In this document: positions 3,665 through 19,093 of the stretch, piece after piece
How the letters are laid out: each line of letters starts with the position of its first letter
How positions within the stretch are numbered: position 1 is the stretch's first letter
Assembly: GCA_964474635.1 (NCBI GenBank)
Contig: CAYYTT010000003.1
Span: 20,017-84,016, forward strand
DNA length: 64,000 bases
Direction of reading: 5' to 3'
Source of the DNA: an uncultured Alphaproteobacteria bacterium
GTDB taxonomy: Bacteria > Pseudomonadota > Alphaproteobacteria > JAJFIK01
Made by a program: the position numbers and the translations under genes
The notes under the pieces: model-generated
Told to the model about the DNA's origin: nothing
Databases searched by the model: none
The model's input: the letters and a program-made list of their open reading frames with translations, nothing else

Positions 3665-4360
3665 CTAGAGTTCAACCTCTCCGACGGAGGGTTTTTCTTG
3701 TGTTTTCGTCAGGTATTGAACCAGATCGTCAATTTCATCCTCGGACGTGAATTGGAAGGACATCTGCCGCATGCCCTTGGCGCGGGTCGAGGCCTTGGGT
3801 CCCCCGCGCCAGCCCTTTTGGTAGGCCTCGATCTGCCGACGCACATAGTCCGCGTCCAACAGCGCCAGATTGGGGATGTAGAGAACGTCCGATCCTTGGG
3901 CAACCTGACCATGGCACGCGGCGCAATTTGCGGCATAAAAGGCCGCGCCCCGCATGTCCGGTTCTTCGGTCCGGTCGGCCTGGGCCACTTCCGGCGTTGG
4001 CGGTCCCAAAGACGCGTAATAGGCGGCAAGGCGGACAATCGCGGCATTATCGAGCAGGCCAGCCGAAGCCGCCATGGTCTGGCCGGCAGTGTCCTGCGGG
4101 TGCGTGCCACGGCGCCCTTGCGCAAAATGCGCCAGTTGTTCGGCCAGATAGCGTTGTCCCTGCCCCGCCAGCCGCGGCGCCTGCAAATCAGGATTGCCCA
4201 TGCCATCCGCGCCGTGGCATGAGGCGCACAGGCCTATGGTGTCATCCCAAGTGGCGGCTTCGTCCACCGTTTGCGCCCTGGATGACGACGCCGCGGCGAG
4301 CGCGATGAGCGCGAGCATGGCGCCCAGCGCGGGACGTGCCCCTTTTGCCCTATTGGTCAT
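3665..4360 (-). CDS. dihaem cytochrome c (c4-like, class I)
   Basis: ATG at 4360 overlapping the upstream stop (ATGA). Signal peptide. Two CxxCH motifs (CASCH, CAACH). QAPRLAGQ c4-type signature. Confidence 0.7.
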   Translation of the reverse strand: MTNRAKGARPALGAMLALIALAAASSSRAQTVDEAATWDDTIGLCASCHGADGMGNPDLQAPRLAGQGQRYLAEQLAHFAQGRRGTHPQDTAGQTMAASAGLLDNAAIVRLAAYYASLGPPTPEVAQADRTEEPDMRGAAFYAANCAACHGQVAQGSDVLYIPNLALLDADYVRRQIEAYQKGWRGGPKASTRAKGMRQMSFQFTSEDEIDDLVQYLTKTQEKPSVGEVEL

Positions 4361-4830
4361 GGCTCTGCTTCTCCTCCGCGGCGCTTTGAGGGGGCGGTCT
4401 CTTGTTGTTCTCGTCCGGCGGCACGGATCCGCGCGATCAGGGCCTCTCGCACCGGCGTCACTTGCGTCAGGGGATCCCGGCGCAGGATCGATAGCTCTTG
4501 CGCCGTGTACGGTACGAACCCGGTGGGCAGACCGTCCGGATCGAAGTGCGTGAGCATCCAATTCAAAACCCTGGCCAGCCGATCATCCGGCAGGTCGGAC
4601 AGCGCAACGCCCGGAACCTGCACGAGATAGGCCCGGCCGCCTTCGACACCCAGAAACGCCGCCATTTCGCCCCGCAATCGCGGCACGCCGCGCTCGGGAA
4701 ACCCTTCGCCGCCGGGCAAGTGGCACCCCTGGCAATTGAGCATGTAGTCGATCCGTACAGGATCCGCCTGACCCGTTGACACATGGGCGATGACCGCAAG
4801 GACCGTCAAAAGGATCGATACGCGCCTCAC
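4357..4830 (-). CDS. monohaem cytochrome c, probable electron acceptor of the amine dehydrogenase
   Basis: GTG start at 4830 with GGAG 9 nt upstream. Signal peptide. Single CQGCH. Confidence 0.65.
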   Translation of the reverse strand: MRRVSILLTVLAVIAHVSTGQADPVRIDYMLNCQGCHLPGGEGFPERGVPRLRGEMAAFLGVEGGRAYLVQVPGVALSDLPDDRLARVLNWMLTHFDPDGLPTGFVPYTAQELSILRRDPLTQVTPVREALIARIRAAGREQQETAPSKRRGGEAEP

Positions 4831-4836
4831 AGTGCC

Positions 4837-5361
4837 CTACTCCGCCACGGCCACAACGACGGACAAGGAACAATGGTAGGGCACATTGGCCTGACTTCCC
4901 GAACACCAGTTGATGTTGTTAGAGGTCTGCGGACGATAAATGGGCGTATCGCCCTTATTGGTGTTGCAAAAGCAGGAGCCACAGGCCGAAAGTCCGCAAC
5001 AGTCGTTATAGGAAATGACGTAATCCTTGCCATCGGTCGGGTTGCGACAGGTCCCGATCCAAGTGATGTCCGAGACGACCGTCCCCGGTGGGCATGTGCT
5101 CGCCGAGCCTCCGCAGCAGCCACACAGAAAGCCATCAATGGCGCAGTGACGCCAGTAATTGCAGTCGTTCGGATCTCCCCGTTCGGGCACGGACTGGCTT
5201 GCGCCTTGCGCAAAGGCCCCGCTTCTGAAAACCGGCACCAGCGGCGTGAGTGAAGCGCCGACCAGCGCCGCACCCATCTTGCCCATAAATCCGCGCCGGG
5301 AGGATGTGCGGGCCCGGTGGCGTGTCATCCGTTCAACGAACTGATCCAATGAGCCTATCAT
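4837..5361 (-). CDS. mauA: TTQ-dependent amine dehydrogenase light (small) subunit
   Basis: Tat signal (SRRGFMGKMGAAL). Cys-rich core CNYWRHCAIDG...PGT...YNDCCG...NWC, near-identical in pattern to the methylamine/aromatic amine dehydrogenase light chain. ATG overlaps mauD stop. Confidence 0.85.
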   Translation of the reverse strand: MIGSLDQFVERMTRHRARTSSRRGFMGKMGAALVGASLTPLVPVFRSGAFAQGASQSVPERGDPNDCNYWRHCAIDGFLCGCCGGSASTCPPGTVVSDITWIGTCRNPTDGKDYVISYNDCCGLSACGSCFCNTNKGDTPIYRPQTSNNINWCSGSQANVPYHCSLSVVVAVAE

Positions 5362-5942
5362 GCGGCAACTCCTAGCGTGTCGGACGCCTCAACCAGGCTG
5401 TCGATATGTTCACGGGAATTGACAAGCCCATGGCTTAGCACCGAACCGTTTCGCCCGATGAGGATGCCATAGGGCAGTTTGCTGATCCGGTAGGCCATGC
5501 CGGCCTCAGCCGACAGAACATAGGGAAAAAATTCGAGCCTGTGGCGGGAAATGAAGGCCCGGTGTTCCGCCTCGTCCCCATCGCTCGCGAAGACAACCCG
5601 CAAACGCCCCTGTTCGGCCGAAGCGATGTTTTTAAGCGCCGGCAGCAATTCCTTGCAGACCGGGCACGTGCTCGACAGGAAGAACAGAAGGGTCTCTCGA
5701 TCATTTTGAGACTGTGCGCCAAAGCGTGTCTCACCGCCATTAAGGGACGGCAGCGAAAAATCCGGCGCCGGATCACCGACCTGGAGGGCTTGGCCCAGGG
5801 AGAGAGCGCCAACGGGCTTCAACCGGTCATGGAGAAGGCCGATCTGCCGCGTCAGGGCATACACCACAACGCAAAGCGCGATGATGACAATCCAGGACAG
5901 GATCACCGCAACCGTCAATGCTTCCATCATGCTTGGCTCCAT
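5358..5942 (-). CDS. mauD: MauD-like thioredoxin-fold thiol-disulfide oxidoreductase
   Basis: N-terminal TM anchor then thioredoxin fold with CPVC motif. Position between mauE and mauA. First ATG at 5942 (track start 5948 is TTG). Confidence 0.75.
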   Translation of the reverse strand: MEPSMMEALTVAVILSWIVIIALCVVVYALTRQIGLLHDRLKPVGALSLGQALQVGDPAPDFSLPSLNGGETRFGAQSQNDRETLLFFLSSTCPVCKELLPALKNIASAEQGRLRVVFASDGDEAEHRAFISRHRLEFFPYVLSAEAGMAYRISKLPYGILIGRNGSVLSHGLVNSREHIDSLVEASDTLGVAA

Positions 5943-6472
5943 CGCCAAAATTGCCTATTCCGGATCAATGTTTCGCTCATGAGGTAAAGGGCACAGGCGG
6001 ACAAAATGCCGAACAGGCAGGCCGCGCCATCAAGCCAGGTCCAGGAGCGCACGGCCGTGGGCATCAGCAATACAGCGGCAACAACACACAGCGCCCCGTT
6101 CCGCACCACCAGTGCCGCAGAGATCTGGCCCGTTCCCCGCCCAAAATGGCAGCCGCAATCGATCTGCGTTCTGCCGCGCAACAGGTTGATCCCTATTGCA
6201 CTTGCGTAAATGGCCAACAGGGTCATGGTGAGAAGCGCCCCGGCCCGAACGGACCCAAGCAGGAGGAGGAGAGCGGCAAAACTCTCCATAAGGACGACAA
6301 GGCCTGCGACAACAGGCGCCAGGAGATCGGGCCCAAGGCGATAGGCCTTGAGTGTCCCGAGAAAACGCCTCACATGCGCTACTTTGTGGATGGCCCCCAC
6401 ACTGAATAATAGAGCAAAGGCCCAAGTCAGGATCATCGCGAATACCGGATCAAGCCCCATCGCCGTCACCAT
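5927..6472 (-). CDS. mauE: MauE-family membrane protein
   Basis: About 5 TM helices, 181 aa. ATG at 6472. Position between mauB and mauD as in mau operons. Confidence 0.75.
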   Translation of the reverse strand: MVTAMGLDPVFAMILTWAFALLFSVGAIHKVAHVRRFLGTLKAYRLGPDLLAPVVAGLVVLMESFAALLLLLGSVRAGALLTMTLLAIYASAIGINLLRGRTQIDCGCHFGRGTGQISAALVVRNGALCVVAAVLLMPTAVRSWTWLDGAACLFGILSACALYLMSETLIRNRQFWRWSQA

Positions 6473-7770
6473 GCCTTGATCGCAATGTGGGCCCCGCCCG
6501 GATTGACCGGGCCACGCACCAGGTGCGTGCCATCGTCCCCGTCATACACATTGACGCGGGATTGGAGCAGGTCCCGGAAACCGGCCTCGCCTTCGGTGAC
6601 CAGGATCCACAGGGTCTCCAGAAACGACACGGGAATGTGGAGATCCATGGTAACAAGGCGTGGCTGCTCTGCCTGCGTCACATCGATGGAAACGGTCAGA
6701 TCCTTCATCTTGATGCGTTGGACTCGTTGCCTCTTGGCCGTATCGACAACCCAAACCTCCTCGCCCGGATCCTCGAATTTTTCCGGTTTGCCCTGCCGCA
6801 TCAAAACGAACAATCGTCCGCTCGCCCGGTGGATCGCCAGATGTCCAAGACCGGCGATGGTCCACTGGTCGCCGCGGTCCCCGTCGCTCAGGAGCGACCA
6901 GCTGCCCAGATGATCGATCCGCGTATCCGTCATTCGAATGGCATGGACCCGCGCCTGGCGTGACAGGAAGTACCAAGTATCTCCAGCGTTGACCGGGGAT
7001 GCCGTCAGCGGATCCTCAATGGCATCGAACAGGACGCCGGTGCGTTCGCGCTCCACGACACGGCCATCAGAACCAAGACGAAGGCGCATAAAGGATCCAT
7101 TGCTGCAGATCAGGTAAAAGCTGCGTTCACCGCCCTCATGGGCGCCCATGCATCCGGGCGTTTCCACCTCCTCAACGAAGCGACGCTCTTTCAGGTCCAC
7201 GATGCTCAGCGATTGGGCGGGTGTATAATTCACGACGGCGAGGAAGCGCTGATCCGGGGTCATACGCATCATTTGGCTCGGCTGCGTCGCGTTCATCCGC
7301 TTGGCGGGAATTTCAATCTCGTATCTGGGCCGAAGGGTCTTATCGTCATAGGCCGCGACGATATCGGTGCGCTCCCCGCGCGTACCTCGGCTCAAATAGG
7401 TCTCAACGGTCAGGATTGCACCATAACGATCGGCCGGCAGAAGATTTGTGAACCAATATCCCGTGCTGAGTTGACCCAACCGCCTTGCATTGATGTCGTA
7501 AAGATAGGCGCGCCCATCCACGAAACTTGGTGAACCAACGCCATAGGCCCAGTAGCGCATCCCCGGAGCCGCATCATCTAACGTTGTGGACCGGGCCATT
7601 TCGGGGAAAGGACTGTTGCGCACAGGGCCCGTCGTTGCGTTTCCGGCCACCATTGAAGCCTGCCACAGCGCAGCACCAGTCAGCGCCGCCAGGAGGACCA
7701 GAAGGACGATCAAAACACGGATCATGAGGGTCAAGATCGGTTTCCTTGTCCGGGACGTCCGCGCGGTCAT
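6466..7770 (-). CDS. mauB: amine dehydrogenase heavy (large) subunit, beta-propeller
   Basis: 434 aa with N-terminal signal/anchor. Size and operon position (first, upstream of mauE-D-A) match mauB. Overlaps mauE by 7 nt. Confidence 0.7.
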   Translation of the reverse strand: MTARTSRTRKPILTLMIRVLIVLLVLLAALTGAALWQASMVAGNATTGPVRNSPFPEMARSTTLDDAAPGMRYWAYGVGSPSFVDGRAYLYDINARRLGQLSTGYWFTNLLPADRYGAILTVETYLSRGTRGERTDIVAAYDDKTLRPRYEIEIPAKRMNATQPSQMMRMTPDQRFLAVVNYTPAQSLSIVDLKERRFVEEVETPGCMGAHEGGERSFYLICSNGSFMRLRLGSDGRVVERERTGVLFDAIEDPLTASPVNAGDTWYFLSRQARVHAIRMTDTRIDHLGSWSLLSDGDRGDQWTIAGLGHLAIHRASGRLFVLMRQGKPEKFEDPGEEVWVVDTAKRQRVQRIKMKDLTVSIDVTQAEQPRLVTMDLHIPVSFLETLWILVTEGEAGFRDLLQSRVNVYDGDDGTHLVRGPVNPGGAHIAIKAW

Positions 7771-7797: not shown

Positions 7798-8442
7798 TTA
7801 AGTCGACGGATTATTGGGGGCGGTCAAAATGCGTTCAAGATAGACGGCCTGCATGTCAAGACCGTGCTGCAAGACTTGTTCAGCCAGGTCGCCCTCGCAC
7901 TCAAAATAAAGATCGATCAGCGATACGGCGGTTTCAGTCAGCATCAGGAATGCCGGCTCAAGGTCCGCTCGCGATGCACCGAAGCCCCTGTGATGGGTGA
8001 GTTCGGCAATGCGGATGGCGATCTGCTTGGTATCGTCCAGATCCATGCGCCGCAGGAGGGGCGAACTCTTCATGGCGCGCCGGATCGCAACGCCGCCCGG
8101 GCGTTGCTTAAGCCAGCCGATGAGATCGCGGACGGTGCCGACCCAGAACCCCGCCGACGGTATGTCGGGCGACGCCTTTGCATCGTAGTCCTCCACCCAT
8201 ACGTTCCAGTCCGCAATCAGATGGTCTGCAAGGGTCGCAACAATCGAAAGCTTGTTTGGAAAATAGCGATAGAGGGTTTGCACGCCCACACCGGCCCGTT
8301 CAGCGACCAGATTCGTGGTCAGCCCATCCCAACCAACCTCATCCAGAACGACCGCCGCCGTCGCCAGTATATGGTCGAAGGTCTTTCTGGACCGGGCCTG
8401 CGAAGGCGTTCTCCTGAGAAGATCGTGCGTTTCGTCCATCAT
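7798..8442 (-). CDS. TetR family transcriptional regulator
   Basis: N-terminal HTH (TNLVAERAGVGVQTLYRYFPNK). ATG at 8442. Immediately upstream of mauB and co-directional. Confidence 0.8.
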   Translation of the reverse strand: MMDETHDLLRRTPSQARSRKTFDHILATAAVVLDEVGWDGLTTNLVAERAGVGVQTLYRYFPNKLSIVATLADHLIADWNVWVEDYDAKASPDIPSAGFWVGTVRDLIGWLKQRPGGVAIRRAMKSSPLLRRMDLDDTKQIAIRIAELTHHRGFGASRADLEPAFLMLTETAVSLIDLYFECEGDLAEQVLQHGLDMQAVYLERILTAPNNPST

Positions 8443-8560
8443 CGGTCCCGTTCGCGCTCGACAAAGCGGAGCATTTGCTCCCATTATTGAGCGGTGAGGA
8501 CACGAGCCCTGTCAAGGGGCAATCCGGGCCTTCGGGCAGAGCCGAAAGCGGAGGGAAGCG

Positions 8561-9852: not shown

Positions 9853-9930
9853 ATGCGGGTGACATTCCCGTTACATGCCGGTAGTTTACGTCGCGTAATA
9901 GGGGTGCCGGGCGCAATGCTCGAGGATCTT

Positions 9931-9958
9931 GGCCCAGGCGTCATGGCCCAGGCGTCAT
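9931..9958. repeat. 2 x 14 bp tandem repeat (ggcccaggcgtcat)
   Basis: Direct reading of the sequence. Confidence 0.85.
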
Positions 9959-10135
9959 AGGTTGGGCGCATCGGGGCTGGGCACGCCGGCGTGATCGAGC
10001 AATATACCCTTTTTGGGTCAGGCTGGGTTGCCCCCATTGTTCTTTCGATGCGTCGCATGGTGGGCCCTGTCCCTTGGGTCCCGGGGCCGGCCGAAAGGGT
10101 GTGGGCGGACGCGTCCATGACGGGAAGGATGGGCC

Positions 10136-12724
10136 ATGAGCGAGCGTGAAGACCTGTTCGCCGCCGAAGGACTGGACGGCGAAGAGGATATTGCCCCGCC
10201 GCCTGCCCGCGGCACGCCGGTCACCCGGTTCTTCCAATCGATCACGGGCAGCTCGTGGTCGATCATTGCCATCCTTGCCAGTCTTGCCATCTCCATCGTC
10301 TCTTTCAAGACGACTTTCCAGGGCATGACGGATTATCTGGGCGCGGAACCACCCTTTGGCTTTGCCCTGTCATTTTTGCTGACCTTCGGGGTCCAGAGCC
10401 TGCTTTTCATTGTCAGTTGGCTTATTGCCTATGCCATTTTTGAGCGCAGGCTGTTTCAGACGGTCAGCTTTACGATCATCTGGGCGATTTCCATGGCGGT
10501 CTCGGTCGGCTTCTCGTTTGTCGATCTTTACGACGGGCGCCTGAAGGCCGGCGGCGGCGCGGTGGAGGCCCAGGAGGCGGGCCGCATGGGCCGGGCCACC
10601 AGCCTCGCGACCGACACGATCCTGGATTTGCGCGAGCAGATGGACGCCCAGCGGACCCGGATCTTCAAGGATTTCCGCAGCCAGGACACCTATCTGACCT
10701 TCAAGGAAACCGAAGATCGCATCCGCCAGCTCGCCACCAATCCGCCGGCGGAGGTCGCGGACGTCTTTCGACGGCAACTGGCTCAATACAAGACCGAACG
10801 CGATGACATCATCCAGGCGCGCAACACGCTCGCCGTGGACCTGAGCCGCGTCGACCAGGACATCGCGGCGGTCCAAACGGCCATCAACCAGGCCCAGGGC
10901 GAGTTGATGGCCTATATGGACAGCAACGCCGAACAGAAAGCCGGCGCGGAAAAAATACTGGTCCAGCTTGAGCCGCGCGTGATCGCACTCACCCAGCAGG
11001 TCGAGAATGAAATCGCCGGACGCGGATCGCGATATGCCGAGACCGTGGGGCGCCCCGGATGCGGGCGCGTGTGCCAGGAACTGCAAAGGGAACTCAACCC
11101 CCTGCGCCTGAAGGTGCAAGAAGCCAAGATCCTTGTCGAAACGATCACGGCCCGCGAACGCGAGCTTCAAGGCAAAATCGATGCGCTCGAAACGGAGCTT
11201 GTCGGGCTCCAAGGACAGCGCAGGGGCTTGCTGGCCGACACTGAAACGCCGCCGACCGCCACCTCCATGGCACAAGGGCCAGGTGGGCGGTCCCTTGAGA
11301 GCCGGTCCGATGGCGGGCTCTCCGTACCCGCCGCAACGATCCTTGACGCCCAGGACCAGCGTCTCGCGTTCCTCGACGCCCGCATCGCGCTTTTTGACGG
11401 CAGCAACAATCCTGTCCGGGCCATTTCCGCGCGCATTATCGAAAACATCAACGCGTTCGAGAAAAACCAGGATCTCGACGCCTTCGATGAAGCCATCGAA
11501 CTGTGTCGCCGGGTGGCGGCCATGGATGGCGGGGCCTTCGTTCACCGTGGTCGTGCGCCCGATGATGTGTGCCCGGGTGTCCAGGACAATCCGGTCTTTG
11601 CGGTCCTTGCGGGCTACAATGCCCAGCGGGCGCGATTTGACGCCACCTGTGGCGGGCGCACCGACGAGGGTCTGGGTCAGACCCTGGCGCGGCTGCGCTC
11701 CGCTGATGACATGTTCGCCCTGACGACGACCTGTATCCAGGAATCGGGACTGCGCGGGGCGGCAATCGATGGGCTGTGGGCGGATTTGCGCAACAAGATG
11801 CAGCGCTGGAGCCCGACCGCCAGCAAAACCGACAAGGCCTACACGGCCCTGATCGAGGATAAGGAAACGGCGGCCCTGATGTCCTTTGGCATTGCGCTGG
11901 TCATGGACTTCCTGGTGCTGCTCGTGGCCATCGGCGGCCAGCAGATGCAATCGGTCGAGACCCTCCACCGGGAGGGGAAAACCGACCTGTTCAAGGACGG
12001 TATGGCCAATCTCACCGTGATGGAGACCGACAGCCCGCGGGCCCGGTCCATCAAGATGTTCCTGAAGCACTGCCATTTCCGCGGCGACGGCAGCGGCCGG
12101 GTCAATCTCGACGGGCTGAGCGGTGACGAGTACCGGGACTCACTCAGTACGCTGCACATGCTGATGGCCAACCGTCAGGCCTTCATCCAGGACGAGCAGC
12201 AGCCTTCGGTGATCACCATCACCAAATCGGGCCACCGGCGCCTGATGACTTTGCTGCAGCGGGATCCGAGCCAACGGGCACGGCGTGATTTCACCTCCCC
12301 CGCCGATCGCCGCTACGGTCCTGGCGCCAACTTTACCTTCTGGACGCCGAAGGGCGCCGCGCCCAGCACCACGGACAAGGGCCCGGATCGCATTTTCAGG
12401 GGCTGGCCCTCCATCGCCGCCAATGATTCCCAGGATGCGGCGGGCGGGCAGTCGCGTCCCGCCTCGGGCGGTACGGCGCGCCCCGCCGATCCCCGCCGCA
12501 TGCCCCCGCGCGCGGCCGGAACGGCGGCCGGGCAAGAGTGGAGCCTCAGGGAACCCGAGAGCCGCGAGCATCTGGTCCGCGAGACCGGCTCCGTCCGTGA
12601 AGACCCCGCTCATGGGGCCGATCTCCGGGACGATAACCCCGATCAGGGGCAATCCTCGTCAGAGCCCCCGCGCCAGCAGGCCGCATATCCCAATCTCGAC
12701 AATCTCTACATCCGCCGGTCCTGA
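10136..12724 (+). CDS. uncharacterised polytopic membrane / long coiled-coil protein (862 aa) with disordered Pro/Arg/Gly-rich C-terminal tail
   Basis: ATG at 10136 with GAAGGA upstream. 3-4 TM helices at residues about 40-130. About 430 aa of heptad-like charged helical sequence. C-x3-C pair (GCGRVCQ). Another TM near residue 590. Last about 170 aa low-complexity. Confidence 0.7.
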   Translation: MSEREDLFAAEGLDGEEDIAPPPARGTPVTRFFQSITGSSWSIIAILASLAISIVSFKTTFQGMTDYLGAEPPFGFALSFLLTFGVQSLLFIVSWLIAYAIFERRLFQTVSFTIIWAISMAVSVGFSFVDLYDGRLKAGGGAVEAQEAGRMGRATSLATDTILDLREQMDAQRTRIFKDFRSQDTYLTFKETEDRIRQLATNPPAEVADVFRRQLAQYKTERDDIIQARNTLAVDLSRVDQDIAAVQTAINQAQGELMAYMDSNAEQKAGAEKILVQLEPRVIALTQQVENEIAGRGSRYAETVGRPGCGRVCQELQRELNPLRLKVQEAKILVETITARERELQGKIDALETELVGLQGQRRGLLADTETPPTATSMAQGPGGRSLESRSDGGLSVPAATILDAQDQRLAFLDARIALFDGSNNPVRAISARIIENINAFEKNQDLDAFDEAIELCRRVAAMDGGAFVHRGRAPDDVCPGVQDNPVFAVLAGYNAQRARFDATCGGRTDEGLGQTLARLRSADDMFALTTTCIQESGLRGAAIDGLWADLRNKMQRWSPTASKTDKAYTALIEDKETAALMSFGIALVMDFLVLLVAIGGQQMQSVETLHREGKTDLFKDGMANLTVMETDSPRARSIKMFLKHCHFRGDGSGRVNLDGLSGDEYRDSLSTLHMLMANRQAFIQDEQQPSVITITKSGHRRLMTLLQRDPSQRARRDFTSPADRRYGPGANFTFWTPKGAAPSTTDKGPDRIFRGWPSIAANDSQDAAGGQSRPASGGTARPADPRRMPPRAAGTAAGQEWSLREPESREHLVRETGSVREDPAHGADLRDDNPDQGQSSSEPPRQQAAYPNLDNLYIRRS

Positions 12725-12775
12725 CGCCGCCTTCGAATGGCGGGACGGCGCGCGGAAAGACCGGCGGTGATGTCG

Positions 12776-13867
12776 TCACATGAACGCGTCCAACGGATAG
12801 GTGAGTTGGCCCTGGCGCCCCGTGACGAGATACATGAACGGGTCCACGATCATGAAGGGCTGCCAATAGCGCCGGGCTTCCATTTCCGGGTAAAGGGCAA
12901 AGGAGCGCTGCAGAAAACTCAGCCCCCCCTCCCCGGGCGCCTGGATCAGCATGCCGTCCCGGTGCAGATCGTAATTGGCGCAGCCATTCTTGATCACGAA
13001 GCCGTAGACGGACACCGGGCACAGGCAGATCTCGACAGGCCGTCCCGACGCGGTCTTCTTGCCCATGAGACCAAGGAGCGAGCGCCGAAGCGCGTCGTCA
13101 TCAAGGACAACTTCAAGCACCGCACGCTGAAACTCCCGCGGATCGAGCGCGGCTTCGATGGCTTCCCGACCAAAGGCGGTCCAGCGGGTCTCATATTTGG
13201 TCAGACACAGGACGAGCCGCTCGACCCGGCAATCGGGCGACCGCAACCGGTTGAACAGCCGGACATAGTTCAAGACCACATTCGCGTCGCCATCGGCGCG
13301 ATAGGTGGCGGGAAGACAGACCATCAAATGGCGCACCCGGGAGATCCAGGCCTCCGCCTCCTGCATGCGGATCCGCTCGCGCGCGCCGGCCCGCAAGGCC
13401 GACTCCACCCCTGGAAAGGCCAGCCCGCCGGCCAGATCCGTGATCGTCAGGGGGATCGACTCAAGCTCGCCGCGTTCGGCCGGGTCCCCCAGATCGCCGA
13501 CCTCAACACTTTTGCGGGCCGACCGGCGCTTGGCTTTCGCACCAGGGTCCTCGTAGTAATCAAGGCGCAGATCATAATGCAGCGGCCGGTCCTCCGGCGT
13601 CGCCGCGTAATGGCCACCATTGGTCAGGGACTGTATGACCTGCGTTGAGACATGTTCGATGGTCCCGGTTGGATCGGCCGAATCGGGCAGAGGCCGCTCA
13701 TCGGACAGGAACACCGGGTGTTCTTCGGGAAAGCTGTGCAGACTCTGGTCCGCCAGTTTCAGCGTCGCCGACAGGAGAGCAGTTTTACCCGATTGGCGTT
13801 GACCCACGAGGGCGATTCCGAGTTTTCCACCGTCGTTGGTTTTGATCATCTTTTCTGAATTGGACAT
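12776..13867 (-). CDS. stand-alone P-loop GTPase (364-372 aa), uncharacterised family
   Basis: G1 GQRQSGKT, G3-like ITDLAGG about 120 aa downstream, G4 LCLTKYE (TKxE). First ATG at 13867 (track start 13894 is GTG). Convergent with the 862-aa gene and divergent from the 1173-aa gene. Confidence 0.7.
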   Translation of the reverse strand: MSNSEKMIKTNDGGKLGIALVGQRQSGKTALLSATLKLADQSLHSFPEEHPVFLSDERPLPDSADPTGTIEHVSTQVIQSLTNGGHYAATPEDRPLHYDLRLDYYEDPGAKAKRRSARKSVEVGDLGDPAERGELESIPLTITDLAGGLAFPGVESALRAGARERIRMQEAEAWISRVRHLMVCLPATYRADGDANVVLNYVRLFNRLRSPDCRVERLVLCLTKYETRWTAFGREAIEAALDPREFQRAVLEVVLDDDALRRSLLGLMGKKTASGRPVEICLCPVSVYGFVIKNGCANYDLHRDGMLIQAPGEGGLSFLQRSFALYPEMEARRYWQPFMIVDPFMYLVTGRQGQLTYPLDAFM

Positions 13868-13894
13868 CAACTCGCCATTACCGCTGAGATACAC

Positions 13895-14051
13895 AACGCT
13901 TTACTGATTTAACCGCCTGATTAGTGGGATGAACATTTAGCAACTTCACGAAAAAAGGTAAAATTACTTGAAATCGCATAGCGCAAATTCAATCTTGCTT
14001 GATTTTACATCTTTAGAGAAACATTATACGACAGTAACAGTCTGATTTTCG
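13895..14051. promoter_or_regulatory. AT-rich (about one-third GC) divergent promoter island between the GTPase gene and the 1173-aa gene
   Basis: Sharp composition drop relative to flanks. Contains TTGATT / TTTACA ... TATACG sigma70-like hexamers and A/T tracts. Confidence 0.55.
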
Positions 14052-17000
14052 ATGAGTGTCATTATGCCCCCCTGGGTTACTCCGTTCTGGGATCGCGCGG
14101 CCGATACCGTGTTTCTGGTGGTCAATCGCGAGAAAATCACGAATTCCGCTGACTTTCTACTGATCCTGGGCGCCGAAACTGAAATGCCGGAGCGTATTCT
14201 CGCGCAGATTCCCCTTACGCCCCTGGATCTCACGCCCTTGGGGCTTGCCACGCCGTTCCTGTTCATCCCGGCCCTCTCGGACGATCGTTTCGCGGTCCAT
14301 CTGGAGCTTTGGAGCCGGGATGGCCGCGTCGACCGGCACACGCTCCTGTTTGATGCCGGCGTCGCGCCGGACCGGCTCCAGGCCCTGCCGGAGGGCGAAG
14401 GCCATGGCCAGCCGCTTGGCGCGGGCGCGCGCGCCATTGTGCTCAATCCGGCCACTTTGCCGCGCTTTTACAATCCGCTCGATGACGGTCCCTTGACGGA
14501 AGTCCTCCTGCCGGGCGGGCTCGCCGGCGCGGGCCATGGGGCCGACACGAGGATCACCGAGGCCAGGCTCAATGGCGGCACGGTGGTCCTGTCTCCAGCC
14601 TCGGGCGGGACGGTCGGTCCGTGCTGGGAACATGTGGGCAGTCAGGAACCGCTTCACGCGGGCGTCGCCACATTGGATCTGGAGGACCGGGGCAACCCGT
14701 GGGCCGGCGAGGCCTTGCAGATCTGGGTTGACCTGGGCCCCGAGGAGGCCCGGGCCGTGGAAATCAACCGCCGGCTCGTCTTCGGGTTCGAGCGCTATGC
14801 GGACCCGGTCGATTTCCGGGCGCGGCGCCGGAGCGGGGACAAGCAGTTCGGTGTACAGCCCACATTTGTCTACGGCGAGGACGACGGCACGCCTTTTGGC
14901 TGCACACGCACCTTAAGGCGCCTTGGTTCATCCGACCACGGGACGGTCCGGTGGATCGCCCAGTGCGACTTTCATGGTCTGGCCCATCTGGATCGGGCCT
15001 TTGTGCTGCACGCGGGCGGCGCGCGCCTTTATCTGGGCTCCAGCAGTGCGGATATCGACGAAGCCGCTATCCACGCCTTCGCGTTCATGGGGCGCCGGGC
15101 CCTGCGTGACAAGGCGGCCGGCCAGGCCGTGCTGGCGGCCTTCCGCCGGCGTCGTCCGGGTCCGGACCGGCGCACGCTTGCGGACGGCAGTCATGTGGCC
15201 GTGGCGGCCGGACGGGCCCTCGACATGACGCTGCCGGGCCAAGGCCTCCTTGCCGAAGCCGCCTATCAGATTTTCGTCAATCGGATCGCCGGACCGGATG
15301 CCCCGCCGGGACGGGTGGACAGTTATCGCCGCTGCCTGGAGGCGCTGGGCGTCGATTTCCACCACGCTGGCAGTGTGCTTGCCAATGCCGAAAGCGTCTT
15401 TGCCCTTCTCCACCCCCAACTGCGTCTCCAGGCCCAGGATGCCGCCGACCGGGGGGCCTTCGAAGCCCAGCAGGAGCCGCTGACCTGCCTCGACATCATG
15501 GGCGTCACGTTGGAGCGCCAGGTGGACGGCGGCCTGGACTGGACGCGCAGCCTGGAGGGCGAGGACCGGACCATGGGCTTTTTGGCCTTCAGTGCCGGTC
15601 TCACCCTGGCGCCCTTCATCCGGGCACGAATTCCCTTCGACCCCAACCTGACCGACGATCAGCTCAGTGACCTCGACACGCTCACGGCCCTTGTGCGCCT
15701 GCCAGGCCTCGATGACGCGGTGAACCGGTATCTTGCCGATGGACGCGGGCCGGCGCGCGAGGGCGGTGCGGTGACCCGGGACGGGCTGAAGACCATCACC
15801 CAACGCTGCGCCCGGATCGAGGACGCGCTCAACGCCTATCGGCGCGAACTTGTCCTGGTCGTCGATACCCTGCCCGAGGGCTCGGTGCTGCGGACCGAGA
15901 TCGCCGAACGCTTCCTCCATGATGTGCAGGGCGACAACCCCTTGCAGATGGCCGGCGCCTTTGTCGAAGGGGTGCGCTTTGCGGCGGCCTGGAACCGCCG
16001 CAGCGGCGGCGCCTCCACACTGGGCGCCTTCGATGCCCTATTGCCCGTCGACGCCGCCGCTTTGGGCCAGATCGGTCGGGCGGGCCGCTGGTCCACCCTG
16101 AGCGATACCGTCTTGATGATCCTGGAGCGGATCCATGCGGATTGGGTGACGCGGACGGATGATGTGGGCAGTGCGCTCCAGGTCTTTGCCCACCGCCTTG
16201 CCCAGGCCAACGGCCAAGAGCCCGTCGACGGCGGCTTTGAGGACGTGCTGAAATCCAGCTTCGACCTTGTGGAACAGGCCTATCGCATCGGGGCCGCCCA
16301 GCCCCACCGCGAGACCGGCGACACCCTGCATTCAACCCTGGATCGGTTGAGCGAGGCGACCCGGGGCCTGCCCGATGCCTTTTTCCAAAGCCAGGCCGGC
16401 GAATTGCTGGCGGCCTTCGTGGATTTCGTCATAGAGCACGGCCCCGATATCAGTGTGGGACTATATTCCATGCTCCGGACCACCGCCGCCCGGGAAGAGC
16501 AACAGGCGACCCTTGACGCCGTGGCCGCGCTTGTGACGCCGGCCCATGCCAAGGCGGCGAGCGCGCAAGTCTCCGATCCAATCCACCAGCTCGACACCAT
16601 CATATTAGGTCTCGAAACGGCCATGGCCGACACGCTGGACGAGGCGCAGACCGCGCAGGAGATCGTCGCCGCAATCCGGACCATGCCCCGCCAGGACGTG
16701 CCAAAAGCCCTCTTGGACTGGGCCGCGGATCTTGAGGCGACGGCCCGCACGGCCCTCACCGCACGGGACCAGGCGGGCACCATGGTTGACGCCATGAACG
16801 CAACCCGGCCGAACGATCCGGAGGCACCGCTCGACCCGCACGAAGTGGTGCCCCATCTCGATGAGCAGATCGCCCGGGTTTTAACCCGGTCCTTGCGCGA
16901 CATGCGCACCCTGATTGCCCGCCAGGAAGCCGTGATCGACAGTTTTGCGGACGACAGTCCGTACCGCGATCAGATGCAAAACCACTTCCGCGAACGGCGC

Positions 17001-17573
17001 ATGGAAGACTTCCTGGGCACCCTGCGCGATGAGCGCTATCTCGCCCAATCCCTGGCGCCGCAGATCCGGGCACTGGGTCTTGACAGTTCCATGATCGAGG
17101 ATCTGGCAGACCTGATGGATGTCTTCGCGCTCGACAATCCACTCTTCGCCGGGCGCATGAACATGCCGGACCTGCGTGAGCTGCGCCGCCTGATCACGCA
17201 AGGCCACAGTCCGACAACAGAGGAAATCGAAGCGATCCAGTCGGAGTTGGACCGGCTGCGCGCCCTGATCGAGGCCGAAGACCCCGCGCTCACCCCCGTT
17301 GGATTTCTGGATCGCCGCCGCAAAGAGTTCCGGGACAAGCTGCGCCGCGTCCGGGAACTTGTCACCCACTATTCCACCAATCCGGAGCAGCTGGCGCTGG
17401 CGCCCTCGGTCGGGCAGGTGGAACTGGCGCGCGAGGGCCTGAAATGGTGGCGCCCGCTCTATGACGCAGACCGGCGCCAGATCGATCCCGTCCTGCGCCA
17501 GGCCCTCGACGCTCAAGATCTGCTTGTCCCGGACGATGACGGCGACGACCAGTCCGTGATCACCTTGCGCTAA
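14052..17573 (+). CDS. uncharacterised large protein (1173 aa), predominantly alpha-helical, no recognisable motifs
   Basis: Uninterrupted ORF with protein-like composition throughout. ATG at 14052 (alternative ATG at 14064). Confidence 0.7.
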   Translation: MSVIMPPWVTPFWDRAADTVFLVVNREKITNSADFLLILGAETEMPERILAQIPLTPLDLTPLGLATPFLFIPALSDDRFAVHLELWSRDGRVDRHTLLFDAGVAPDRLQALPEGEGHGQPLGAGARAIVLNPATLPRFYNPLDDGPLTEVLLPGGLAGAGHGADTRITEARLNGGTVVLSPASGGTVGPCWEHVGSQEPLHAGVATLDLEDRGNPWAGEALQIWVDLGPEEARAVEINRRLVFGFERYADPVDFRARRRSGDKQFGVQPTFVYGEDDGTPFGCTRTLRRLGSSDHGTVRWIAQCDFHGLAHLDRAFVLHAGGARLYLGSSSADIDEAAIHAFAFMGRRALRDKAAGQAVLAAFRRRRPGPDRRTLADGSHVAVAAGRALDMTLPGQGLLAEAAYQIFVNRIAGPDAPPGRVDSYRRCLEALGVDFHHAGSVLANAESVFALLHPQLRLQAQDAADRGAFEAQQEPLTCLDIMGVTLERQVDGGLDWTRSLEGEDRTMGFLAFSAGLTLAPFIRARIPFDPNLTDDQLSDLDTLTALVRLPGLDDAVNRYLADGRGPAREGGAVTRDGLKTITQRCARIEDALNAYRRELVLVVDTLPEGSVLRTEIAERFLHDVQGDNPLQMAGAFVEGVRFAAAWNRRSGGASTLGAFDALLPVDAAALGQIGRAGRWSTLSDTVLMILERIHADWVTRTDDVGSALQVFAHRLAQANGQEPVDGGFEDVLKSSFDLVEQAYRIGAAQPHRETGDTLHSTLDRLSEATRGLPDAFFQSQAGELLAAFVDFVIEHGPDISVGLYSMLRTTAAREEQQATLDAVAALVTPAHAKAASAQVSDPIHQLDTIILGLETAMADTLDEAQTAQEIVAAIRTMPRQDVPKALLDWAADLEATARTALTARDQAGTMVDAMNATRPNDPEAPLDPHEVVPHLDEQIARVLTRSLRDMRTLIARQEAVIDSFADDSPYRDQMQNHFRERRMEDFLGTLRDERYLAQSLAPQIRALGLDSSMIEDLADLMDVFALDNPLFAGRMNMPDLRELRRLITQGHSPTTEEIEAIQSELDRLRALIEAEDPALTPVGFLDRRRKEFRDKLRRVRELVTHYSTNPEQLALAPSVGQVELAREGLKWWRPLYDADRRQIDPVLRQALDAQDLLVPDDDGDDQSVITLR

Positions 17574-17611
17574 AAACCGGTCCCGTAAGGACGATCACGC
17601 AATACGGCACA

Positions 17612-17647
17612 AGCCGGCGCACCGCTCCAGGGCGCACCGGCTTTTCT
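17612..17647 (+). terminator. possible intrinsic terminator (imperfect GC hairpin plus TTTTCTC)
   Basis: agccggcgcacc...ggcgcaccggcttttctc between the convergent 1173-aa gene and the pirin gene. Confidence 0.35.
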
Positions 17648-17669
17648 CACGCCGCCTTACTGGCTTGGT

Positions 17670-18371
17670 TCAAGGGATCATGTCGAAGACGAGCACTTCG
17701 GCGCCTTCCCCCTTGGAGAGATGTACGGACGGTTCGCCCCTCAGGGCCGCGCCGTCGCCGGCGGAAAGGCGCGTTCCGTTCACGTCGATGCTGCCCCGGG
17801 CGACCTGCACCCAGGCAAGGCGTCCTTGCGCGATTTCATGACGGGCATCCTCGGCCCCATCGAACAGGCCGGCGTAAAGGCGCACATCCTGGTGGATGAG
17901 GACGCTGCCGCCCTCACCCGCCGGCGCCCCGATCAGGGCCAGGCGGCCACGCTTATCCGCCTCCGGAATAGGCGTCTGCTCATAGCTCGGCTCCAAACCC
18001 TCCCGCTCCGGAATGATCCAGATCTGCAGAAAGTGCACCGGATCGGATGCGGAATGATTGAATTCCGAATGCCGAATGCCCGTGCCCGCCGACATACGCT
18101 GGATTTCGCCCGGCGTAATCACAGACCCCGTACCGATGGAGTCCCTGTGCTCAAGGGCGCCGTCAAGGACATAAGAAATGATTTCCATGTCCCGGTGTCC
18201 GTGGGTGTCGAAGCCGGCCCCGCCCATCACCCGGTCCTCATTGATCACGCGCAAGGGCCCAAAGCCCATATGCTGCGGATCGTGGTAATGACCAAAGGAG
18301 AAGCTGTGCCGCGACTTCAGCCAGCCGAAATCGGCAAGGCCGCGCTCGTCCGCATACCGAATAGACATCAT
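17670..18371 (-). CDS. pirin family protein (bicupin, quercetinase-like)
   Basis: ATG at 18371. Cupin metal-site His/Glu pattern (HSFSFGHYHD...H...E). Pirin length 233 aa. Confidence 0.85.
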   Translation of the reverse strand: MMSIRYADERGLADFGWLKSRHSFSFGHYHDPQHMGFGPLRVINEDRVMGGAGFDTHGHRDMEIISYVLDGALEHRDSIGTGSVITPGEIQRMSAGTGIRHSEFNHSASDPVHFLQIWIIPEREGLEPSYEQTPIPEADKRGRLALIGAPAGEGGSVLIHQDVRLYAGLFDGAEDARHEIAQGRLAWVQVARGSIDVNGTRLSAGDGAALRGEPSVHLSKGEGAEVLVFDMIP

Positions 18372-18649
18372 AGCCTTAGCCTCCTCTTCCAGGTGCCAAG
18401 CAATTGGCTTGACGCTGATATGGCCATGGCGCCCTGCACCGCCAGGACAGTCCCCGGCGACAGTGTCTTTCCGAACGGGAAACACTCAACACAAATGGAA
18501 AACGCCCACCCCGAACGCAAAACGCCCACGAATGGGGCTGAACCACGGGCGCCCGCGCCAGGGGCCGAGGCGCACGATTGCAAGGCCATCAGCCCGGTGC
18601 GAAGCTTTAAGCGAAGAGCCTTATAACCGGAATGAGGAGGTGGTGCCCG

Positions 18650-19093
18650 ATGGAAGTCGTGAACGAGGTCGTCCCAAGCGATCCAGATCAGCTTGCGGAA
18701 TTGCTGCAACCGGGCCCAGACGGCCCGATTTTCATGGTCAATCTGCTGAAATTCAAAGACAGGGCCGAATATGAAGACGGACGCCCGACCGACCTGTCGG
18801 GGCGGGATGCCTATATGATCTACGGGCGGGCCGTCGTGGACTTGCTGCCGAAATTCGGCGGGCGCGCGATCTTCGCAAGCGACATCACCTTTCTGGCCAT
18901 CGGGCAGGTCGAGGAGTTATGGGACGAAGTGGCCATCGCGTCCTATCCCAATCGCGCAGCGCTTGTCGCCATGTCGACCTCCGACGCATGGCGTGAGATC
19001 GCGGTCCATCGCACCGCCGGTCTCAAGGGACAGCTCAACATCGAGTCCGTGCTGCAGGACGGAGTTGCCCTGCCCGCCGGACTGACCGGGTAA
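18650..19093 (+). CDS. DUF1330 domain protein
   Basis: ATG at 18650 with GAGGAGG upstream. Family recognition is by pattern only. Confidence 0.55.
   Translation: MEVVNEVVPSDPDQLAELLQPGPDGPIFMVNLLKFKDRAEYEDGRPTDLSGRDAYMIYGRAVVDLLPKFGGRAIFASDITFLAIGQVEELWDEVAIASYPNRAALVAMSTSDAWREIAVHRTAGLKGQLNIESVLQDGVALPAGLTG

Follow-up and report, generated by a model that had tools for sequence, protein, structure and literature searches.

What kind of GTPase is encoded between two very large, unannotated proteins in the genome of an uncultured Alphaproteobacteria bacterium, and does it act together with them? The DNA analysed here (the window) is a 64,000-nucleotide stretch of GenBank assembly GCA_964474635.1 (GTDB lineage Bacteria; Pseudomonadota; Alphaproteobacteria; JAJFIK01; contig CAYYTT010000003.1, positions 20,017–84,016 of the forward strand). 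An earlier, sequence-only reading of the window took the gene at positions 12776–13867 for a stand-alone GTPase, and its place between two giant proteins as a hint of a regulatory switch. It also proposed profile searches and structure prediction as checks, and named, as the finding that would speak against it, a clear place in a characterised family of GTPases associated with translation or the ribosome. Judged by its predicted structure, the gene product is a TRAFAC-class (Ras-like) G-domain protein whose nearest solved relative is YcjX, although it is not a member of the YcjX family. It belongs to a rare, unannotated family that borders on the Pfam family DO-GTPase2. As to its role, we lean towards the view that the GTPase is the nucleotide-dependent switch subunit of a conserved, membrane-associated module formed with large proteins termed A, C and, in other genomes, B (an A/(B)/C module).

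The gene lies on the minus strand, a point on which the earlier reading was silent, and otherwise has the extent given there: 363 codons followed by a stop codon at 12776–12778 (list of open reading frames, ORFs, and translation). The ORF reaches upstream to an alternative GTG start at 13894, and the ATG at 13867 (giving MSNSEKMIK...) produces an N-terminus that agrees with those of the GTPase homologues. Close homologues, with 47–54% identity, are present in three other metagenome-assembled genomes (MAGs), and profile searches find a wide family; the ORF is therefore a real gene rather than a chance reading frame. The gene is convergent with the 862-residue ORF C (10136–12724, plus strand) and divergent from the 1173-residue ORF A (14052–17573, plus strand). 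A 303-residue ORF antisense to it (12737–13648, plus strand) has no support and is the sort of shadow ORF expected in GC-rich DNA; several similarly long antisense ORFs overlap genes A and C.

The assignment to a GTPase fold is carried by structure prediction. An AlphaFold model built on a 142-sequence family alignment is confident (predicted local distance difference test score, pLDDT, 90.0; predicted template-modelling score, pTM, 0.89), and superseded a poor first model built on five sequences (pLDDT 62.6). The modelled chain begins with β1 (residues 16–22), the P-loop, α1 (28–41), a short strand (52–55), a helix (70–79) and Thr90; continues with β2 (96–105), a helix (108–116), a disordered loop (118–125), β3 (135–144), DLAGG, α2 (162–177) and β4 (180–186); and ends with α3 (195–207), β5 (217–223), TKYE, three helices (225–269), β6 (279–284), PVS and a 73-residue extension. 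Strands β2 and β3 are consecutive and run into D144. In a Foldseek comparison with the PDB, four YcjX chains rank at the top (E 1.7e-6 to 3.8e-6; TMq 0.42–0.47, TMt 0.35–0.39), as YcjX does for the shallow-alignment model too. The next matches, with E-values of at least 2.3e-4 and TMq of at most 0.31, are a bacterial dynamin pair, eEFSec, SR-beta, G-alpha, Hbs1, Rnd1 and GIMAP2, and nearly all of the top 50 PDB entries are GTPases. Both the confident G-domain model and its best structural match thus bear out the description of a stand-alone protein of GTPase fold.

The motifs and inserts of the protein are distributed over the gene as follows, with conservation counts taken from the 142-sequence family alignment (A5):

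12776..13867, minus strand: GTPase-fold gene, the window's member of an unannotated TRAFAC-class family (ORF, homologues, AlphaFold (AF2) model, Foldseek)
13781..13804, minus strand: G1 (Walker A) motif GQRQSGKT, residues 22–29; G22 in 135, G27 in 139, K28 in 135 and T/S29 in 138 of 142 sequences
13601..13744, minus strand: insert 1, residues 42–89, between α1 and switch I (model, alignment A3, composition, hhalign)
13598..13600, minus strand: switch-I (G2) Thr90, just ahead of β2 (residues 96–105); Thr in 112 and Ser in 16 of 142
13466..13552, minus strand: insert 2, residues 106–134, a charged loop and short helix in the β2–β3 hairpin (model, composition, alignment)
13424..13438, minus strand: G3 (Walker B) motif DLAGG, residues 144–148; D144 in 137 and G147 in 135 of 142
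13190..13201, minus strand: G4-like motif TKYE, residues 223–226; T223 in 125 and K224 in 100 of 142, with position 226 Glu in 86 and Asp in 56
12998..13018, minus strand: G5-like motif PVSVYGF, residues 284–290; S286 in 137, G289 in 142 and F290 in 137 of 142
12779..12997, minus strand: family-specific C-terminal extension, residues 291–363, about 73 residues (alignments and model)

The criteria applied here for TRAFAC-class P-loop GTPases are reportedly those defined by Leipe et al. in 2002. The window protein has the Walker A motif, a switch-I Thr before a strand, the Walker B DxxG and the G-domain fold; at the G4 position, where [NT]KxD confers guanine specificity, it has TKYE, and the family varies there at both the Lys and the acidic residue. 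The motif strings quoted in the sequence-only reading are exact (they include CLCPVS, residues 281–286), and its G1 stands, since GQRQSGKT fits GxxxxGK[ST] and is kept across the 142 sequences. Its "canonical G4" has to be given up, because TKYE carries Glu in place of the Asp of [NT]KxD. The fourth G4 position is acidic in every one of the 142 sequences, while the Lys is replaced in 37 (by Met in 13, Gln in 10, His in 9 and Arg in 5), an unusual pattern. In the window GTPase, moreover, the Walker B Gly is not followed by a catalytic Gln or Glu; of the 142 family sequences, 80 have Gly at this position (148), 37 have Glu and 10 have Ala. One further peculiarity is seen in the P-loop of the window clade (G-[QH]-R-x-S-G-K-T): its third position, equivalent to Ras Gly12, is Arg (Arg24 in the window protein), and in the rest of the family it is mostly Ser, Thr, Val or Pro.

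Two of the domain boundaries drawn earlier shift in the light of the model. A single insertion of about 120 residues had been proposed between G1 and G3. The spacing is indeed 114 residues, but these include a normal α1, the switch-I Thr90, β2 and β3, and there are two inserts rather than one (residues 42–89 and 106–134); the net excess over Ras in the model is about 75 residues. Insert 1 (about 48 residues, 10% Pro and 15% acidic) contains the short strand 52–55 and the helix 70–79 and varies in length across the family. Insert 2 (about 29 residues) is 24% acidic and 24% basic, and its residues 118–125 are of low confidence and predicted to be disordered. Likewise, the C-terminal domain of about 170 residues reduces to the extension of about 73, because residues 227–290 still belong to the G domain (three helices, β6 and the G5 PVS286). 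The extension is modelled as short strands and two helices, with pLDDT 91–98 except at 311–320. Its signature residues—G295 (138 of 142), N298 (140), W335 (130), P337 (140) and P343 (138), together with G350—follow the pattern YGF..G.AN...W.PF...PF and are the best conserved positions of the GTPase. The emphasis that had been placed on Cys in this part of the protein was misplaced. The only Cys are residues 184, 213, 221, 281, 283 and 296, with no N-terminal Cys pairs; C213, C281 and C283 are not conserved, C296 is subfamily-specific, and C184 and C221 lie in core β-strands, so that the Cys carry no information. A metal-binding, Cys-rich C-terminal domain was considered and rejected, because the Cys are not conserved in the family; nor do they form a metal-site pattern.

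How close is the relationship to YcjX (DUF463, PF04317; PDB 6nz4, 6nz5 and 6nz6)? Among solved structures, YcjX gives the best match, ahead of the others by about two orders of magnitude in E-value, and has the highest TM-score. The two proteins present G1, a long spacer, the switch-I Thr, β2, a loop, β3 and DxxG in the same order and register, and both are stand-alone, cytoplasmic and gene-linked to a membrane protein. An hhalign comparison of the family profile with E. coli YcjX (probability 20%, E 1.1e-3, N-terminal half only) is in register over G1, a spacer of similar length, the switch-I Thr and Walker B (LEIVDYPGE against F.I.DG.GG), and pairs Thr90 with the threonine of the YcjX sequence PTPTRG. 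The superposition covers the core and the N-terminal inserts but not the remainder; a TMq of 0.46 corresponds to about half of the protein. YcjX differs in being about 100 residues longer and in carrying a large helical insertion after Walker B that the window family does not have, whereas the window family has its own C-terminal extension, and DLAGG where YcjX has DYPGE. A Pfam scan of the window GTPase gave no PF04317/DUF463 match at E<=1.

A word-indexed search of 5.8 billion clusters returned the window GTPase and four relatives (54, 54, 47 and 36% identity), and word-indexed searches with the GTPase, the family profile and C found 4–6 proteins each. The wider family is visible only by exhaustive searching with hidden Markov models: HMMER, run over 1.84 billion representatives with the five-protein alignment, gave 250 proteins, most of them 290–430 residues long, at E<=1e-3; 104 pass at E<=1e-10 and 9 at E<=1e-30. 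Thirty representatives traced by exact look-up are unnamed or "hypothetical", bar one, automatically labelled "GTPase SAR1 family protein". Where a source is named, it is an Alphaproteobacteria or Pseudomonadota MAG, Neomegalonema sp. or Candidatus Rhodobacter oscarellae; a scan of GTDB genomes and Joint Genome Institute (JGI) metagenomes yielded three known MAGs and one 1.3-kb contig, and nothing else. The family is rare, and its known sources are all uncultured Alphaproteobacteria, mostly marine ones.

The Pfam search that the sequence-only reading had proposed found no match at threshold; indeed, no Pfam, NCBIfam or PADLOC model reaches its threshold for the GTPase, A or C of the window. 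In the curated profile libraries, neither the partners in the distant loci described below nor the 30–64 family members scanned have a threshold match to a named family, save for one member, P0031. Sequence searches of the PDB, with the single sequence and with the family profile, gave matches at the level of the P-loop only (ABC transporters, Der and others), and a literature search found no paper on this GTPase family. The GTPase family and its partner families are new and unannotated, and thematically close to YcjX and the DO-GTPases; most likely, the GTPase family is a relative of the YcjX and DO-GTPase systems but lies outside both.

The second part of the question concerns the large neighbours, which in the window are arranged as follows:

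14052..17573, plus strand: protein A, 1173 residues, 34–44% identical to its partners in loci L001, L002 and L005; divergent from the GTPase gene
10136..12724, plus strand: protein C, 862 residues, a membrane protein (hydropathy, alignment); convergent with the GTPase gene
13868..14051, no strand: divergent intergenic region between the GTPase and A genes (composition, promoter scan, Rfam)

Ten independent loci encoding the GTPase were recovered (L001, L002, L005, L006, L010, L011, L013, L014, L017 and L019), and in all ten A, or a protein with the A motif, is divergently adjacent to the GTPase; the suspected link to this neighbour is no accident of position. L001 and L005 have the order pirin, A (1178 and 1164 residues, minus strand), GTPase (plus strand) and C (811 and 804 residues, minus strand). 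In L002, A (1205 residues) and the GTPase stand in a different context, and C (909 residues) lies beyond DUF2079 and glycosyltransferase genes. Among these window-clade loci, the identity of A stays within the range given above, and that of C is 51–60%. The distant loci (L006, L010, L011, L013, L014, L017/L018 and L019) consist of an A-like gene (minus strand), the GTPase (plus strand) and a gene for a large soluble protein, B (plus strand). B follows the GTPase co-directionally in seven distant loci, overlaps the GTPase stop codon by 4 nt in L006, L010 and L017, and has a common, conserved N-terminal domain of about 130–200 residues. By tblastn, neither B nor the other neighbours from the distant loci are found in the window, and there is no sign of B having been fused into A. 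As judged from these sequences and gene orders, A accompanies the GTPase everywhere and B usually does; C is a membrane partner that recurs and is fixed in the window lineage.

Protein A has no Pfam, NCBIfam, PADLOC or PDB-sequence match (the A profile included) and no transmembrane segment. It has two conserved motifs, an N-terminal W-V-x-P-F-W-D and LAHLDRAFV. The A proteins of L006, L010, L013 and L014 have a remote but significant match to the window protein, while those in the A position of L011, L017 and L019 have only an N-terminal [FY]xW[DE]xxAxhLhh in common. Two in-frame ATGs, at 14052 and 14064, open the window gene, giving MSVIMPPWVTPFWD; the true start may be 14064, because the homologues begin at the second ATG (MS/MP-xWVxPFWD). 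In L017, from a Neomegalonema-like MAG, soluble proteins of 1191, 473 and 527 residues are encoded after the A-position gene on the same strand (L017:417–9594, minus strand); they have no domain match and no counterpart in the other loci.

The 184-bp spacer between the GTPase and A genes has a GC content of 37%, against 63.7% for the window. It contains the only two sigma70-like matches in 9900–17800 (13937–13964 on the plus strand and 14052–14023 on the minus strand), which would give rise to overlapping divergent transcripts. No Rfam family matches the spacer, and its sequence is not conserved with respect to the spacers of L001, L002 and L005, which share a block among themselves.

Protein C has four hydrophobic segments by hydropathy (36–61, 73–103, 106–132 and 577–604), with a region of about 440 residues between the third and the fourth that includes a coiled coil at about 150–370, and a tail of about 260 residues after the last transmembrane segment. 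Given a cytoplasmic N-terminus and three transmembrane helices, the 440-residue region would be periplasmic and the 260-residue tail cytoplasmic. Six Cys are invariant in four homologues (C309, C313, C457, C479, C505 and C533), and would fit disulfides in a periplasmic region. The profile matches of C are weak and of coiled-coil type (SMC, LmuB, DUF4407). DUF4407 (PF14362) scores 15.8 bits (E 0.0085) with the window protein and 19.1 bits (E 0.0009) with that of L001, short of the cutoff of 31.3. DUF4407 proteins resemble C in having an N-terminal transmembrane cluster, a long coiled coil and a later transmembrane segment; however, the match falls on the coiled coil alone, and C has about twice the length and carries a Cys-containing domain and the 260-residue tail besides.

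That C belongs with the GTPase, as its position had suggested, is borne out by its distribution. Its four homologues, the only ones in 5.8 billion clusters, share their four contigs, from four genomes, with the close GTPase clade, and C recurs in a convergent position in L019. There, a 641-residue homologue (E 2e-10 to the window C) follows the GTPase and B, beside a GTPase that is only 25% identical to that of the window; its hydrophobic segments follow the same 3+1 pattern, and four of the conserved Cys are retained. The L019 homologue is part of a group of genes beside GTPase and B (L019:12890–21120, minus strand) that also encodes a 907-residue protein and a multi-transmembrane protein of more than 1200 residues. 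The 907-residue protein has a signal peptide, an N-terminal vWA-like domain with DxSxS (VWA_2, E 0.0076) and a C-terminal transmembrane segment. The set suggests that some lineages have a larger, envelope-associated complement of genes.

The module appears to be an ordinary part of the chromosome. The ORF layout of the right flank appears syntenic with those of L001 and L005 (pirin, DUF1330, DUF2855, fatty-acid hydroxylase, acetyltransferase, DAHP synthase II), which places the module at a fixed chromosomal site in three MAGs. The GC content at third codon positions (GC3) of the GTPase, A and C genes is 0.75–0.79, matching that of adjacent housekeeping genes. No relatives were found in 72,556 plasmids and 50,697 phage records by tblastn, nor in IMG/VR contigs with two subfamily alignments. 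Because three MAGs carry it at the same site beside pirin and housekeeping genes, and because its GC3 is host-like, the locus looks, from the sequences compared, like a vertically inherited chromosomal one rather than a mobile defence island.

How might such a module work? If the GTPase is its switch, A would be an obligatory large soluble partner, divergently transcribed from a common AT-rich promoter region; C would be a further partner in this alphaproteobacterial lineage; and B would be a translationally coupled addition in the distant loci that the window lineage has lost. Binding of GTP—or, given TKYE, of another purine nucleoside triphosphate (NTP)—would order switch I (Thr90) and switch II (DLAGG), whereupon the inserts and the C-terminal extension would form a surface that engages A and the cytoplasmic part of C. 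Since no catalytic Gln or Glu follows the Walker B Gly, a partner or dimerisation would have to contribute a residue for hydrolysis, making the cycle dependent on the partners. What the analysis shows is a real gene, its fold, the conservation of its motifs, and its linkage and co-distribution with the partner genes; we infer the switch role (from the fold and the gene linkage), the physical interactions, the membrane action and the nucleotide used. The output of the module might lie in envelope stress, in conflict or defence, or in a structural role. A more far-reaching proposal, which is possible but on balance doubtful, is that the GTPase, A, B and C, together with lineage-specific additions (such as the secreted vWA-like/transmembrane protein and the multi-transmembrane protein of L019), constitute an undescribed, GTPase-driven and possibly envelope-spanning membrane machine. 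All components would then be new families, with the GTPase as a lineage of its own, the third after YcjX and the DO-GTPases, its C-terminal extension acting as an effector-binding or nucleotide-lid element, and its Glu-type G4 conferring an unusual nucleotide preference.

Several observations weigh against a role as the switch of an A/(B)/C module. The three window genes are separate transcription units, convergent and divergent, rather than an operon, so that co-regulation can at most be inferred. The A profile has no significant match to the upstream proteins of L011, L017 and L019. The partners differ between loci: no C gene lies within 10 kb in L017, the window clade lacks B, and C may be no more than an accessory. 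The topology of C comes from hydropathy alone, and its second segment, at 31 residues, is ambiguous. Finally, with Glu for Asp in G4 and the Lys lost in 26% of members, "GTPase" may be the wrong name for the protein.

The last point leads to the alternative that the protein is a G-fold ATPase, or an enzyme of some other NTP, without specificity for GTP. We consider this unlikely; it is compatible with any of the functional models. In YchF/OLA1, a G4 of the form NxxE accompanies a preference for ATP; in the present family, Glu takes the place of the guanine-reading Asp in 86 of 142 members, the window GTPase included, and the G4 Lys is Met, Gln, His or Arg in 37. The invariably acidic character of the position, with Asp in 56 members, argues instead for recognition of a base amino/imino group, as in guanine; the G5 Ser is conserved; and the closest structure, that of YcjX, was crystallised with GDP and GDPCP (PDB entry titles). 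Given the non-canonical G4, specificity for GTP is putative. A housekeeping GTPase of the ribosome- or translation-associated type (Era/Obg/EngA/HflX/YihA), to which the giant neighbours would be irrelevant, can on the other hand be regarded as effectively refuted. What favours it is generic: sub-threshold matches to MMR_HSR1 (6 of 64 members) and small_GTP (5 of 30), and weak structural matches that include translation factors. No Pfam or NCBIfam family, be it Era, Obg, EngA, FeoB or dynamin, is matched at threshold, and the best structural match is YcjX, in line with the sequence-only reading, which had set the protein apart from these five; nor does it belong at threshold to any characterised translation- or ribosome-associated family. 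A count of five close homologues in 5.8 billion clusters is incompatible with a universal housekeeping factor, and the family has inserts and a conserved C-terminal extension of its own and is tightly linked to the genes for A, B and C. Small and HAS-type TRAFAC GTPases more generally (Ras/Arf/SR-beta, Era/EngA, G-alpha) have the G-domain core and motif order in common with the window GTPase; HAS-GTPases likewise have no catalytic Gln after DxxG, and G-alpha likewise has extra structure between α1 and switch I. Their TM-scores are only about 0.3, however, with no threshold profile match, and the window GTPase differs from them in its other inserts, its non-canonical G4 and a unique extension instead of a simple α5. 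A functional analogue of YcjX–YcjF, in which a stress-induced GTPase would act with C as its inner-membrane partner in envelope or membrane stress, is quite improbable, though a little less remote. The structural match, the hhalign register and the presence of a conserved membrane protein in the window module all speak for it. YcjX genes almost always adjoin that for the membrane protein YcjF and have links with psp operons and with a sigma32 promoter (PMC3041696), and the E. coli locus agrees. Yet the match to YcjX is partial, as described above, and the Pfam family is not hit. DUF697 (YcjF) was not found in a Pfam scan of the window neighbours; A, B and C are all unrelated to YcjF, and YcjX has no counterpart of A or B. 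The C gene is convergent, whereas E. coli ycjX and ycjF overlap by 4 nt and are translationally coupled. There are no psp genes in the window neighbourhood, and the G4 of YcjX is a canonical TKAD.

The remaining alternative is that the module is a divergent branch of the DO-GTPase "GTPase-centric" systems of biological conflict (Kaur, Burroughs, Iyer and Aravind 2020; PMC7159879). In such a system, the GTPase would set the threshold for deploying an effector against phages or other invaders, with B in a GAP1-like role, A as a GASH-like helical or sensor protein, and C as the membrane-acting effector. DO-GTPases are TRAFAC proteins with a conserved Glu in Walker B, which on our own reading of the paper is the residue after the Gly; they often occur as paired paralogues, often have N-terminal zinc ribbons, and are always accompanied by a GAP1 protein plus either a GASH or an FNIII component, transmembrane components being common (PMC7159879). 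A later paper from an overlapping group (PMC11237479) cites the YcjX structure paper beside the DO-GTPase paper for a DO-GTPase-family protein, in agreement with a position of the window family between the two. The resemblances are several. Both are stand-alone TRAFAC proteins linked to large partners of otherwise undescribed families, often with transmembrane components, and in most family loci a large partner lies directly downstream, as GAP1 does. Member P0031 just reaches the DO-GTPase2 (PF19993) gathering score (27.6 bits against 27.0, from Walker B to G4), while matching the family profile over its full length (E 3.9e-20). In all, matches were found to DO-GTPase2 in 8 (weak ones), to AAA_16 in 11 and, below threshold, to MMR_HSR1 in 6 of the 64 members scanned; most of the DO-GTPase2 matches are limited to the P-loop. 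The Walker B Glu (DxxGE) is present in 37 of 142 members (26%). The L010 locus has a second, truncated GTPase that echoes the paired GTPases: a 252-residue paralogue (L010:238–996, minus strand) that sits immediately downstream of the A gene and overlaps it, has the motifs GPRGSGKT, DVRGE, TKCE and PISLYGY, and has neither the inserts nor the C-terminal extension; it is seen in this locus only. Accessory genes vary by locus, as the signal-peptide/vWA-like/transmembrane protein and the multi-transmembrane protein of L019 illustrate; the distribution is sporadic and rare; and L001, L005 and L002 carry Trypsin_2–AAA–FGE-sulfatase/WD40 and TIR–FGE-sulfatase genes nearby. Against all this, the window GTPase has no DO-GTPase1 or DO-GTPase2 match at E<=1 in Pfam, and its Walker B is DLAGG. 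GAP1-N/M/C, GASH, GAAD and FNIII are not matched by A, B or C of any locus in Pfam (remote homology beyond the reach of hmmscan being possible), and neither a zinc ribbon nor a second GTPase copy was found in the window. B, the gene in the GAP1 position, is missing there by tblastn, with no co-directional gene downstream of the GTPase. No effector domain is recognisable, and PADLOC-DB 2.0 gives P-loop or coiled-coil noise only for the module proteins (E at least 5e-6, on the coiled coil). There are no signs of mobility, given the absence of relatives from plasmids, phage records and IMG/VR contigs, the constant chromosomal site in three MAGs and the host-like GC3. On this balance of evidence, a conflict system seems to us an unlikely identity for the module, of about the same standing as a non-GTP nucleotide.

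P-loop GTPases with large partners are recurring switches in membrane remodelling, stress responses and immunity. In the present case, a confident G domain is gene-linked to three large families without a Pfam, NCBIfam, PADLOC or PDB-sequence domain match, and the GTPase is an entry point to these "dark" proteins of 800–1200 residues. It is small and probably soluble, and K28, T90, D144 and E226 are ready sites for point mutants. The family is an intermediate that links YcjX and the DO-GTPases, two poorly understood groups, and provides a natural series of Glu-for-Asp substitutions in G4 for the study of nucleotide specificity. The practical weight of these points is limited for now by the rarity of the family, its uncultured sources and the lack of an attached phenotype.

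Beyond the module, the left flank of the window contains a beta-lactamase-like gene, a TetR regulator, a methylamine dehydrogenase cluster and an Nramp gene. The methylamine-dehydrogenase-type cluster (3665–7770, minus strand) consists of a heavy chain (6466–7770), a redoxin/AhpC-like protein (5358–5948), a light chain (4837–5361) and a di-haem-type cytochrome c (3665–4561), and is adjoined by the TetR gene (7798–8484). Genes of conflict type lie a few kb beyond the module at L001:13916–20882, L005:16452–21092 and L002:19616–21083, and none in the window; they encode FGE-sulfatase proteins, a Trypsin_2 and AAA pair followed by FGE-sulfatase/WD40, and a TIR_2 and FGE-sulfatase protein beside a guanylate cyclase. 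To the right of gene A are the pirin gene (17670–18485, minus strand), followed by a terminator-like hairpin (17592–17580, minus strand), and a 153-residue ORF (18632–19093, plus strand) at the position of the DUF1330 gene of L005.

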